Below, one piece after another: positions 51,001 through 57,000 of a stretch of 64,000 nt of DNA. The stretch's first letter is position 1, and each line of letters starts with the position of its first letter. The stretch lies in NCBI RefSeq assembly GCF_003991155.1, contig NZ_CP031293.1. One strand, 5' to 3'. Made by a program: the position numbers. This DNA comes from Escherichia coli (GTDB lineage Bacteria; Pseudomonadota; Gammaproteobacteria; Enterobacterales; Enterobacteriaceae).

Positions 51001-54000
51001 TTTATATTTAGAGGATCGCCAATTTTTTTGCATTCAATGAGAATTTGAACCTCGCTATTTTTTAAGATTGCATAGTCAATCTTTTCACCTTTCTTCGTTC
51101 CAATGTCGCATACAAACTCTGGGATAACTTCGGTAGGATCAAAGACATCATAACCTAACACATTGTTAATGAACGGCATTACGAAAGCATTTTTGGTAGC
51201 TTCCTCCGTTTCAATGACTCCGGCTTGTTGTTTTATTTTTGCGGATAATGAATTCAGCTTATCTATAAACTCCATAGACATTATAACTCCTTTTATATAT
51301 ATTTAATAAAAATGCGTTTTATAAAAATATAGAAAATATTTATATATTAACGCTTTATCATTGGTCATAGTTAATGTATAACACACAAAAAATAATGTTT
51401 GCACATTGTAAATACAATGGTGAAACAAACTTGATATTTATCAAGAAAATAAAACAATGTCTTTTATTGGTTGTTTTAAATGTTCAATGAATACGAGTTG
51501 GAACTATAGCAAGACTAGCTTCGATATCGCATGGATAATCTAATACAGATTTTTTAACACCTAATACTATGAGTTATATGTAAATTGCGAGCATCCTCGC
51601 ATCTTTTCAACAAGTTACTGCACACCGTTATTCTTCTTCCGAGCGGCATTCCTGAGTCAACTTTATCCCCCTGACGGCCCATATAAATCGCGCTATCGTG
51701 ATTGTTATCACTAATTGTGTGTATCGTGTGTATAATCATGGAAGGGCAGGGATGTGAAAAGTGCAGACGTGATCGCCATCCTGAAGCAGCATGGCTGGGA
51801 ACATATTCGAACCCGTGGCAGTCATCATCAGTTCCGCCACCCTGTTCATCCGGGTCTGGTGACGGTTCCGCACCCTAAAAAAGATATTAAGCCCGGTACG
51901 CTGGCGCAAATTGGGCGTCAGGCTGGTTTAACATTTTAAAATTTCAGGAGGCAATATGTTTTATCCCGCCTATATCCACAGTGATCCTGACGGCAGCGCC
52001 AGCGGTTTTTTCCCTGATGTTCCAGGCTGTTATTTTGCTGGTGATACGCTGGACAACGCTTTCCAGGATGCGCGAAGTGCACTGGTCGCGCACTTCGAAA
52101 CCTTATGCGAGATGGATGAAGAGTTGCCGCTTCCAGGCTCTGTGGAAACACATCTGGTCCAGCGTGCGCAGGACTTTATTGGCGGGCAATGGTTGCTGGT
52201 GGATATCAATATGAATCAGTTCGAAGGTCGGGCTGAACGTATCAATATTACGATGCCGAAAAGGTTACTGAACAAGATTGATACCTACGTGCGCAATAAC
52301 CCAGACTACGCCAACAGAAGTGCGTTTCTGGCAGAAGCTGCCCGGCGTGTATTGCCGGGCGTTTAATCTCGCGTTTCGATGGTTAGCGGGCAACTGCACC
52401 GACTTGTAGGCCTGATAAGACGTGTTAAGCGTCGCATCAGGCAATGTGCACCCTACGGTGGATGCGGCGCGAGCGCCTTATCCAACCTCCGGATGGCAAT
52501 GCTTTTCCTCATTCACCCAGATCCGCATTTCGCCTTCACCCCGGTTAGCCCAGCTAAACCACGGGATAAACGTCAGAGTTTGCGGCTGGCGTTTGGCTGG
52601 CGCACTGTCGTAATGCCACAGCGGTTGCTGCTCTGGATTGCTCTGTTCATACCGGTAACCCGGTGCCTGGATTAAGATCTTATGGCTGAACAATCCATTA
52701 CCTTCAAATGTCGTAAATGGCGCATCGGCGGGCAGCCACAGGTTATGCAGCGACTCGCTGTTGTCGGCCTGTTCCAGGCAATAAACCAGCGGGCCGCGCT
52801 GAATCGCCACTTTTCCGGCGACGTGACGCACCAGCGGGTTACCGTAAACGCGACGTACTGGCATTGGCAACGTCAGATTCAGCGTGTCGCCCTCCTGCCA
52901 TTCGCGGGTAATGTGCAAATACCCTTTACGAATATCCTGCTCGACCTCTTCCCCATTCAATATGATCTGCGGCTGTGTGCACCAGTCCGGCAGACGTAAA
53001 GCCAGCGTATGACGCACCGGCTGGGGCGATTCAACCGCAATTGTCACCTGTTCCTGCCACGGATAGTTTCCGCTAACCCGCAGACGCAGCGTGCCATTTT
53101 CTACCGGCACTTCCATGCTGTTTCCTGCGTATATGTTGATATACAACGCATCTTCACGCGGCGTGTAGAGATAATGACCAATCGAGGTTAGCACGCGGGC
53201 GATATTTGGCGGACAACAAGCGCAACCAAACCAACGCTGGCGGATCGGCTTAACGTGATCGTAGATATGGTTGAATTTCAGCGATTTTGGATGTACTTCC
53301 AGCGGATTCACATAGAAGAAATGTTTGCCATCCAGTGCCATGCCGCCGAGCACAGTGTTGTACAGCGCGCGCTCCATCACATCGGCATATTGACTGTCGC
53401 CTTCCATTTCCAGCATTCGTCGGGCAAACATCATCAGGCCGATGGAGGCACAGCTTTCGGCGTATACCGTGTCATTCGGCAGATCGTAATCGCTGCTGAA
53501 CGCTTCACCGCTGCTCTGTGAGCCAATGCCGCCGGTAATATATAACTGACGCTGGGCCATATTGTTCCACAGCCGCAGGCAGTCCTGACGCTTGCTTTCA
53601 TCGTGACTTAAACGCGCGAGATGCGCGACGCCGGTCATCAGGTAGACAAAACGTACCGCGTGACCAATGGCGGTTTGCTGCTGTGCGATGGGCAAATGTG
53701 CCTGGCTGTAGGCTTTGTCTTTCACCATCCACGCCGGGCCGTAGGTGTGCCAGTGCGAGGTCTGCCCGCGCTTTTCATATTCCTGGTCGTAATAGTGCGG
53801 TTGCGCACCACGCTGTTCGACAAAATAGTTCGTCAGCGCCAGGTAGCGCGGCTCTTCGGTCACTTCATACAGGCGCATTAGTGCCAGTTCAATTTCCGGG
53901 TGACCAGGATAACCGTGTAACTTACTTTCATCTGGACCAAATACGCTGTCGATATGATCGGTCAGACGGCAAACTACTTCCAGCAAGCGCCGTTTTCCCG

Positions 54001-57000
54001 TGGCCTGGAAGAAGGCGACTCCGGCTTCAATCAGATGACCGGCGCAGTAAAGTTCATGGCACTCCGCCAGATTGCTCCAGCGTTCTTCGGGCGCTTTTAC
54101 CGTAAAGTAAGTATTGAGATAGCCATCTTCGCACTGGGCGGAAGCGATCAGTTCAATCACCTCGTCGGCGGTTTTTTCCAGTTCGGCGTCCGGCTTCTGG
54201 CACAGCGACCAGGCTACCGCTTCCAGCCATTTGGCGACGTCGCTGTCCTGAAATACCATCCCGTAAAATTCACCGTCTTGCAGTCCTGCGGCAATGCGAA
54301 AGTTTTCAATCGCATGGCTGGGTTCCGCTTCTGGGATACGATCGTTCAAGGCGTCCCACTGATAAGGAATCACCACATCGCGGACCAGTTGTTGGTACTG
54401 ACCGAGGAACGGATCGCTGACCGTCAGTTTATGCAGATCGACTTCCGAAATGTTCATCTTGTGCTCCTTAAGGCTGTACATGACGCTGACGCAGGTCGCT
54501 AGCAATGCGTGACATCATAGGGTTATTGAGTTTGCAAAAGCGGATCGCCATCGCCAGCAGCAGGTGGAACAGCGCAGGCAGCAATGTTTCCATTGCTGTG
54601 ATCCCGCCAAGCGAACTGGCGGTCTGGTTTTCCACGCCTGGCTGGTAGGCGACAAAAATAAACAGCAGGCTGATGATCCCGGCGCTGGAGGCCCAGGCCA
54701 GCTTGATGAAAAACAGATTGAAGGCGAAGTTCATGCCGGAAGAACGTACGCGGGTTTTCCACTCGCCGTAGTCATCGGCAAAGGCCATCAATGAGAAGTG
54801 CAATGGCAATGTGAAGCCAAGAATCACGCCATTACCGAGGATCACCGCCAGCCACAGCGTTTGATAAGCCGGGCCAGAAGGCAGGAACCACATCAACACC
54901 GCCAGCGCGGCGAGGAGCAGGTTGGTGTAGTAGTAAATTTTGACGGTATCGAAACGTCGCGTTAACGGGCTGACAATCACCGAGCCGATAATGGAGGCGA
55001 AGGTGACCATGGTGAAGAACAGCGACGTGTAGCCCGTACTGCCTTGTAAGACGTAGGTAATGAAGTACATATACCCACCGCCGCGAATATTAAAGACGTT
55101 AATCAGCAGGAAAGACATGACCAGCATCAGCAGCAGTTGGTCGTTGTTCCGCAGCCCGGCAAGATGTTCGCGCAGGGTAAATTTCCCCATTGTGGAGAGT
55201 GGCACCCGTTCACGAACCCAGAAGAAACAGCACAGGAACATCACCACGGCAATGGCGCACAATACGCCGACGCCCAGTTGATAGCCGCGCGCGGCATTAC
55301 CCTGACCGAAGAGATCTACCATCCACGGTAAGCCTACCGAAACCAGAAATCCCGCCACGCCGCAGAGAACGAATCGCCAGGACTGGCAGGAGATCACTTC
55401 ATTGTGGCGGGTGGTCATGGTGTTGATCAGCGCGCAGTACGGCACGTTGATGGCGGTATAACCGACTGAAAGGAGCAGGTAAGTGCCGAACGCCCAGGCG
55501 ATTTTTACTCCCATGCTGGCATCTGGCACGGTGAACGTCAGGATGCCGATAATGCCGATGGGAATGGCAATCCACAACTGCCACGGACGAAAGCGCCCCC
55601 AGCGACTTTGCGTCCGGTCGGCAATGACGCCCATCACCGGGTCGGAGATGGCATCAAACACGCGCAGTGCAATAAACAGCGTGCCGACCAGCGCCGGAGT
55701 TAAGCCAAAAACGTCGGTGTAGAAAAAGGTGAGAAAGTTCATGATCAGGCAAGTTATTACGGTGCCGCCTGCGTCACCCAGGCCGTAGCCTATTTTTTCC
55801 CGTACAGATAACGCATCGTCAATTTTACCTTTAGCGATATCAGCGGTAGTAATCGGTGTAGAGGTCATAGATATTCCTCGTGAATAGGGAGCAATTTTTA
55901 GTTTTATTGCAATGACATGATTAATTCTGCCGTGAACGGGAATATCAACAAGGCGAGAAAAGAGTAAAAAAAGGTGACGATTCCGACCTGAATTTAAAAG
56001 TGTGAATTGGATCAGGTGAAATTAATGTTTTTGATTAATAATCAAAAGGTAATGTGTTTAATCATTAATGAATAAGCGGGAAATTACATATCAATGCTCG
56101 AATTATCCATGACGTTACCGATTAAAGTGCAAAATGGTGGATTATTTATTTCCCGTGGCGTAGGGAGGCATCCGGCAAGGCGGCTGGAGTCATGGGAAAT
56201 TATCTTTGTCGAAAAAGGTCGATTAGCGATTCAGGAAGAAGAGCGGATATTTCTGGTCGATGCGGGAGAGAGTTTATTACTCTGGCCGAACCGACAGCAT
56301 GTTGGGGTGGAGGATTTTCCCGCCGATCTCAAATTTTACTGGCTGCATTTTGAGGTTAAAGCGCCGGACAACGATCCGCGCTGGCTCACTCATCTTAGCG
56401 TGCCGCAACAAACTAAGGTTGCCGATCCGCAGGTGCTGGTGGCCTTGTTTCGCCAGTTCTTAAGCGAACAGGAAAAGCATCAACGCACTCCGGCGCTGGA
56501 GTTTATTGTGCTGCTGATTTTGCAGCAGCTCACCCGTGACGCGCGTCTTGATGAACAGGCCGATGGTGCAGGCACCACCCTTGCCTGGAAAGCACAGAAA
56601 CTGATTCGCACGCAATATCACCGCCCGCTTTCCACGGCGCTTTTAGCCCGCGAGCTGTACTGCAATGCCGATTATCTTGGGCGCGTCTATCGGCGGGTGT
56701 TTCATCTGACGTTAACAGAAGCAATCCACCGCCAGCGGGTGCGCGAAGCCGAAAAGCTGTTAATTAGCGAAGCGCGATCGCTCACGGAAGTGGCGGCGTT
56801 GTGCGGGTTTAATGACGTCGGCTATTTCCGGCAGATTTTTCGCAAACACACCGGCTTAACGCCAGCTGCGTGGAAGCGACGTTACAGCAAGGAACATATC
56901 AATTCGTAGTGCCGGGGCAATGAAGCCCCGGCGTGAGGGATTACTGCCCGTAATAGGCATTGGCCCCATGTTTACGCAGGTAGTGCTTATCCAGCAGTTC

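Follow-up and report, generated by a model that had tools for sequence, protein, structure and literature searches.

The closest described relatives of the locus reported here come from bifidobacteria and Geobacillus. HypBA1 of Bifidobacterium longum (Bll1HypBA1; PDB 3WKW and others), the founding β-L-arabinofuranosidase of glycoside hydrolase family 127 (GH127), has as its partners an ABC importer (BauABC), a LacI-type regulator and a surface enzyme of family GH121 (HypBA2). It is a cytoplasmic enzyme that acts on imported substrate (PMC10728902, PMC6085000). Ara127N of Geobacillus stearothermophilus T-6 is likewise an intracellular β-L-arabinofuranosidase, and its gene is part of a large arabinose/arabinan cluster that also includes araDBA, ABC transporters and α-arabinofuranosidases, being the last entry in the gene table of that cluster (PMC4428132). 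In some bifidobacteria, hypBA1 and BauT, a GPH-family permease of the BauR2 regulon, are predicted to serve the uptake and cleavage of β-arabino-oligosaccharides, possibly in cross-feeding (PMC5928203). Here we describe a set of three genes in Escherichia coli (the trio), encoding a GH127 enzyme, a GPH-family symporter and an AraC-family regulator, at positions 52478-56909 of a 64,000-nucleotide stretch of DNA (contig NZ_CP031293.1; hereafter the window) that is 100% identical to the E. coli chromosome NZ_CP029747 (strain 2016C-3878). We consider it likely, though well short of certain, that the trio is a self-contained catabolic module for small β-L-arabinofuranosides. It resembles the BauR2 regulon in joining a GPH symporter to a cytoplasmic GH127 enzyme, both systems being predictions, but carries an AraC-type rather than a LacI-type regulator. 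Compared with the partners of HypBA1, it encodes no extracellular enzyme, and unlike the Geobacillus gene, the E. coli GH127 gene forms part of a minimal unit of three genes that is separate from araBAD.

The trio consists of three intact genes between sgbE and hicB. The GH127 gene (52478..54457, minus strand, 659 aa) follows the gene for a cation:glycoside symporter of the GPH (MFS_2) family (54468..55868, minus strand, 466 aa), the first gene of the operon, and the AraC/XylS-family regulator gene (56094..56909, plus strand, 271 aa) is divergent from both, with a spacer of 225 bp. These open reading frames are long and intact and give very strong family matches, which places them far beyond chance. 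Translation of GH127 starts at ATG 54457, preceded by AAGGAG and used in all orthologues; we rejected a TTG start at 54505, a mechanical reading-frame start that overlaps the symporter gene, in favour of the ATG with its ribosome-binding site. Since the stop codon of the symporter gene overlaps that ribosome-binding site, symporter and hydrolase form one operon. The regulator gene converges on sgbE, and a separate promoter region serves the trio. An earlier note, made from the sequence alone, had proposed a GH127-type enzyme with a CACCPPN cysteine motif, a MelB-like GPH symporter and a divergent AraC-type regulator, together a self-contained uptake and hydrolysis unit; apart from the TTG start its coordinates were exact, and the family models, the motif position and an identical gene order in 68 species-representative genomes bear its assignments out. 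The enzyme of the window is three residues longer than the usual 656 aa, as a TAG stop has become GAG and adds Glu-Val-Gly (52478-52486).

The GH127 protein, so named in RefSeq, contains all three Pfam domains of the family, PF07944 (9e-112, 374 bits), PF20736 (7e-24, 84 bits) and PF20737 (3e-25, 88 bits), far above their gathering scores, which we take to represent the catalytic (α/α)6 domain plus the middle and C-terminal β domains. Its closest solved structure is Ara127N (PDB 4QJY; E 1e-233, ~60% identical over 640 residues), whose activity we took from the PDB molecule name and secondary sources. HypBA1 comes second (E 4e-153, full length), at only ~45% identity. The motif GCACCPPN occupies residues 411-418, and the codons of CACCPPN (residues 412-418; 53204..53224, minus strand) align with C415-A-C417-C418 of HypBA1. 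In HypBA1, E322 is the acid/base, C417 the nucleophile, and E338, C340 and C418 are zinc ligands (PMC10728902, PMC10850190). These five residues align with E318, C414, E334, C336 and C415 of the E. coli enzyme, which thus has a Cys3-Glu zinc site, a Cys nucleophile and a Glu acid/base identical to those of HypBA1, with the same three domains around them. All five, along with H134, H186 and H266, are invariant in 83 orthologues, none of which has an internal stop; in HypBA1 the invariant histidines are H142, H194 and H270, which we take to bind the sugar. The N-terminus (MNISEVDLHK) is hydrophilic and lacks a signal peptide, pointing to a cytoplasmic enzyme, the location also established for HypBA1. 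The conserved active site and the closeness to Ara127N (~60% identity) lead us to predict a retaining β-L-arabinofuranosidase activity (EC 3.2.1.185), so that the substrate, which the earlier note had left unknown, can be narrowed to a predicted class, the β-L-arabinofuranosides.

The symporter belongs to the GPH family (TC 2.A.2), matching PF13347 at 1.5e-73 and scoring 333 bits on TIGR00792 ('gph'; cut-off 231). The closest solved structure is that of MelB (3e-38, alignment spanning residues 20-460). Scores for the more specific models all fall below their cut-offs (MelB, 209 versus 456; YagG, 357 versus 610; YicJ-type, 325 versus 836; glucuronide, 194 versus 528) and are best for YagG and YicJ, so by model score the protein is a distinct GPH subgroup nearest the YagG/YicJ pentoside group. 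The Asp residues of the MelB cation site are kept (D72, D76), while MelB Asn58 corresponds to Ser75 and the sugar-site residues K18/D19 to G35/T36. Given what is known of MelB, these replacements suggest coupling to H+ and a different sugar; the coupling ion is thus probably H+. In a search of 1.84 billion representative proteins, the nearest relative outside the group (62% identity) proved to be encoded directly after a GH51 α-L-arabinofuranosidase gene, and the next one (42% identity) directly before a GH43 gene. Both GH51 and GH43 include arabinofuranosidases, and these neighbours are therefore an independent pointer to arabinofuranosyl or pentosyl oligosaccharides. Gene pairs such as melB-melA, yicJ-yicI, yagG-yagH and uidB-uidA of K-12 likewise place one GPH symporter beside one cytoplasmic glycoside hydrolase. 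The trio differs from these pairs in that its symporter stays below the cut-offs of all four named equivalog or subfamily models, and its hydrolase is of a different family and mechanism (a cysteine glycosidase).

The regulator has an N-terminal cupin ligand-binding domain (AraC_binding PF02311, 3.5e-8) and a C-terminal double helix-turn-helix (HTH_18 PF12833, 2.4e-19; HTH_AraC PF00165, 2.1e-10), which places it in the AraC/XylS family. It is not AraC itself, scoring 60.6 bits on the NF007860 equivalog against a cut-off of 208. We aligned 69 enterobacterial intergenic regions corresponding to the divergent regulatory region (55869..56093), in which blocks of at least 95% conservation stand out. 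A putative promoter for the symporter-GH127 operon consists of weak, conserved elements on the minus strand (55924..55951), TTGTTG (55951-55946) and CAGAAT (55929-55924), with a 16-nt spacer. Just upstream of the -35-like element is the block CAGGTCGGAATCGTCA..CTTTTTTTAC (55964..55990, minus strand), in which GGTCGGAAT is at least 95% conserved across the 69 loci; its position makes it a candidate binding site for the AraC-family activator. Further upstream, a CRP-like site, CCTGA-N6-TCACA (56001..56016, minus strand), centred ~91 bp from the presumed transcription start, has a right half and a GATC core that are at least 95% conserved, from which a function may be supposed. No consensus sigma-70 promoter was found at the scanner threshold between 52200 and 57100, as would be expected for an activator-dependent promoter, and the promoter proposed here is therefore drawn from conservation across species. 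The proposed arrangement is like that of the araBAD promoter PBAD: a weak core promoter is preceded by a block at the activator position (~-40 to -75) and, near -91, by a CRP-like site, and an AraC-family gene is divergently transcribed. It departs from PBAD in its regulator, which is not AraC, and in its CRP-like site, whose left half is poor.

We scanned species-representative genomes for the locus, which returned 80 loci. All three genes, ordered and oriented alike, were present in 68 of 72 species loci from the Enterobacterales, in at least three chromosomal contexts, and the regulator gene was divergent from the symporter gene in every one of the 68. It adjoins sgbE/sgbU in 29 loci (Escherichia, Salmonella, Klebsiella, Raoultella, many Enterobacter and others), lies directly beside avtA/ysaA without sgb genes in 24, and is found elsewhere in 15 (e.g., Pantoea, Mixta, Kosakonia, Buttiauxella, Atlantibacter). 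All three genes are under strong purifying selection, with ratios of nonsynonymous to synonymous divergence (dN/dS) of 0.03-0.17 (0.03-0.08 for GH127, 0.04-0.17 for the regulator), and synonymous divergence is saturated between genera. Together these values indicate that the trio is old, mostly vertically inherited and selectively maintained. Outside the enteric bacteria, homologues 70-72% identical to the E. coli enzyme, across bacterial classes, occur in Bradyrhizobium without the symporter or the regulator. A prolyl-oligopeptidase (S9) gene lies just upstream in 4 of 7 Bradyrhizobium loci (L083, L085, L087, L088), which is suggestive of the use of Hyp-rich glycopeptides, although the basis is too thin to build on.

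Our combined findings lead us to propose the following mechanism for β-L-arabinofuranoside use. The GPH symporter would import a small glycoside across the inner membrane, probably with H+. Cytoplasmic GH127 would then remove the non-reducing β-L-arabinofuranose by means of its zinc-held Cys nucleophile, C414, with E318 as the acid/base, and the freed L-arabinose would enter the ordinary AraA/AraB/AraD pathway encoded elsewhere. The AraC-family protein would sense the glycoside or its product and activate the weak, probably CRP-assisted promoter laid out like PBAD. Candidate substrates are Araf-β1,2-Araf (β-arabinobiose), Araf-β-hydroxyproline of plant extensins and β-capped arabinan fragments. 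Of these, the first two (β-Ara2 and Ara-Hyp) are substrates of HypBA1 and XeHypBA1 (PMC6085000). As the unit has no secreted enzyme, E. coli would depend on oligosaccharides released by plants or other microbes.

Several observations weigh against this proposal. We found no functional work on an enterobacterial GH127, symporter or regulator in the searchable literature; in enterobacteria, GH127/DUF1680 came up only in a study of associations and in a single transcriptome, nothing was found under the O157:H7 Sakai tags ECs4457-4459, and the names of the K-12 pseudogenes ysaC/ysaD (see below) led only to unrelated genes that share them. On expression, the one report that we found describes a Salmonella GH127 induced by lactulose, which is not an arabinoside (PMC13304739). 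GH127 is polyspecific, including an aceric-acid hydrolase, so that family membership alone does not fix the sugar. The family also includes 3,6-anhydro-D-galactosidase. The poor left half of the CRP-like site counts against the promoter layout, and more than half of sequenced E. coli are without the trio, which implies that any benefit is conditional. Finally, in two genomes of Salmonella enterica subsp. enterica the symporter gene has been cleanly deleted, its first codons (ATGACCTCTA) being joined to the GH127 ribosome-binding site (L005 9738-10000, L095 3738-4000), and the enzyme and regulator are intact. The symporter is thus not indispensable to the role of the enzyme in these genomes, while the subspecies houtenae (L094) and diarizonae (L038) keep all three genes. 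The GH127 of subsp. enterica (L005/L095) differs from that of houtenae (L094) by a synonymous divergence (dS) of ~1.2, as deep as between genera, which hints at allele replacement by horizontal transfer at the locus.

Some of these observations would also fit a different specificity of the enterobacterial GH127, for another furanoside or an intracellular or unrecognised glycoside, with β-L-arabinofuranosides not being its natural substrate. An aceric-acid hydrolase model (NCBIfam NF049879, a GH127 equivalog) matches at 7.7e-137, and 5MQO and 6EX6 are among the PDB matches; the match reaches only 457.5 bits against a cut-off of 950, and its best stretch covers only residues 252-649. By far the best matches are two enzymes described as β-L-arabinofuranosidases, which align over the full length, and the presumed sugar-binding histidine positions of HypBA1 are invariant. 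The symporter-less Salmonella, in which the retained enzyme and regulator are constrained (dN/dS 0.16), and the lactulose induction speak for such a specificity, and the pairing of the symporter's relatives with GH51 and GH43 genes speaks against it. On balance we regard another natural substrate as unlikely, though likelier than the other alternatives considered below.

The K-12 chromosome retains only scars of the locus, which is deleted from this strain although it is old and widespread in enteric bacteria. Of the regulator gene, the last 104 bp survive as the pseudogene ysaC (window 56806-56909), and the pseudogene ysaD is an internal GH127 fragment (window 52595-52783, 88.9% identity). 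Between these flanking remnants, a 4.0-kb deletion has removed the segment corresponding to 52784..56805, and a second piece of 210 bp has been lost at the 3' end of GH127; no microhomology was seen at the deletion junction. The 11% divergence of ysaD, set against the 99.4% identity of the neighbouring yiaT to that of O157:H7, suggests that the deletion is old. The locus is thus not intact in K-12, in agreement with the earlier note. That note had also placed the trio where K-12 carries yiaT-yiaW, which does not hold. In O157:H7 and other strains the order is aldB-yiaWVUT-GH127-symporter-regulator; the place of the trio is between sgbE and yiaT, and many E. coli have it together with yiaTUVW, and K-12, which has yiaT-yiaW between sgbE and aldB, lost the trio by internal deletion. 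The idea that the trio replaces yiaTUVW is therefore rejected. In the window, yiaTUVW has been replaced by an HSDR_N-domain gene and hicAB in an event separate from trio loss.

Among 5,426 complete E. coli genomes, the trio is present in 2,311 and the K-12-type scar in 2,461. The remaining genomes show other states, such as aldB abutting sgbE, and the trio is absent or reduced in several hundred more. Such frequent loss could mean that in E. coli the trio is decaying, a relic devoid of current function and heading for a K-12-like end. GH127 is moreover annotated as frameshifted in both genomes with the trio directly beside aldB that we checked (AVS0786, H105). The lesion, 1 bp missing from codon 651, affects the last six residues only, past the end of orthologues from other genera, and we did not count it as loss of function. 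Where the trio is present its reading frames are intact, dN/dS within E. coli (window versus O157:H7) is 0.05-0.07, purifying selection extends across genera and the regulatory blocks are conserved, all of which makes a relic very unlikely.

We give little credence to a related possibility, that the real substrate is an unrecognised furanoside or an intracellularly formed glycoside tied to the L-pentulose chemistry of neighbouring genes. The loss of the symporter in S. enterica subsp. enterica, where enzyme and regulator stay under purifying selection, together with the L-xylulose/L-ribulose-5-phosphate genes beside 29 of the 68 trios, leaves some room for it. If true, it would add a new specificity to GH127 and open a new way into rare-sugar catabolism.

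The earlier note had further suggested that the trio is an upstream feeder of the neighbouring rare-sugar (L-xylulose/3-keto-L-gulonate) pathway. On this view the trio would release a rare L-sugar for processing by LyxK, SgbH, SgbU and SgbE of the yia/sgb (2,3-diketo-L-gulonate/L-xylulose) route. The trio abuts sgbE in the 29 loci, SgbE is annotated as L-ribulose-5-phosphate 4-epimerase, the reaction of the last step of L-arabinose catabolism, and both units concern plant-derived carbon (PMC6958661). We nevertheless find a feeder role highly improbable. No sgb genes adjoin 39 of the 68 trio loci, and O157:H7 still has the trio after losing yiaK-sgbE. The sgb route is closed to L-arabinose unless AraA and AraB are present, and neither araA nor araB is nearby in any of the 80 loci. 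The trio also brings a regulator and a promoter region of its own and converges on sgbE, and the yia operon has PlaR as its repressor, which responds to ascorbate and galacturonate (PMC6958661). Relative to the yiaK-sgbE operon, the trio is thus inconsistent in both co-occurrence and orientation, and their adjacency is explained by a variable slot that both units occupy, bounded by avtA/ysaA and aldB/selB. The mapping of PlaR targets was done in K-12, a strain without the trio (PMC6958661). In O157:H7, a C-terminal yiaJ/plaR fragment lies directly after the AraC-family gene (L003 11516-11656). The yia operons themselves vary: those of Salmonella (L005) and Klebsiella (L007) have a DUF4862 gene between yiaL and the transporter genes that E. 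coli does not have, and in Klebsiella an MFS_1 transporter takes the place of the YiaMNO TRAP system of E. coli and Salmonella.

The surroundings of the trio in the window are also variable. Directly 3' of the GH127 stop is a REP-type (repetitive extragenic palindromic) element (52409..52487, minus strand; Rfam naRNA4 RF02564, 63.4 bits, above the gathering score), which is found there in O157:H7 too; REP-like matches also occur within the yiaW-aldB spacer of K-12. Beyond it are hicA/hicB (51754-52366) and the HSDR_N-domain gene, similar to type I restriction endonucleases (50202-51281, minus strand), a full arrangement present in only 191 of the 5,426 E. coli genomes. In Enterobacter ludwigii (L010), hicBA is directly 3' of GH127, and HicB-like matches follow GH127 in Phytobacter, Yokenella and other loci. 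Between yiaY and aldB there is a Fic-family gene (47220-48515, plus strand) that matches the PADLOC 'SoFic' anti-phage model (1e-43); K-12 does not have this gene, whereas O157:H7 and other strains do. Compared with K-12 (L002), positions 46767-58722 are unusually diverged for core genes (95.1% nucleotide identity for sgbU/sgbE, 95.8% for aldB), and the dS of GH127 between the window and O157:H7 is 0.14. This divergence suggests a recombination-prone or variable slot.

Thus, the reading of the locus as a self-contained glycoside unit is supported and can be sharpened to β-L-arabinofuranosides, with the comparison to K-12 and the feeder idea in need of correction. If it is true, about four in ten sequenced E. 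coli can use β-linked L-arabinofuranosides, as can most of the Klebsiella oxytoca group, Enterobacter, Citrobacter, Kosakonia and Pantoea, an ability so far credited mainly to bifidobacteria, Bacteroides and Xanthomonas. The lack of a secreted enzyme points to scavenging or cross-feeding on plant extensin or pectin fragments freed by other gut or plant microbes. The trio explains the pseudogenes ysaC and ysaD, and K-12, the usual laboratory reference, cannot show the trait. The sharp split in the species, with 2,311 genomes carrying the trio and 2,461 sharing one old scar, is a natural experiment for niche adaptation. A GH127 gene has been found to co-segregate with invasive isolates from inflammatory bowel disease, an association (PMC11879602) that the presence or absence of the trio may underlie.

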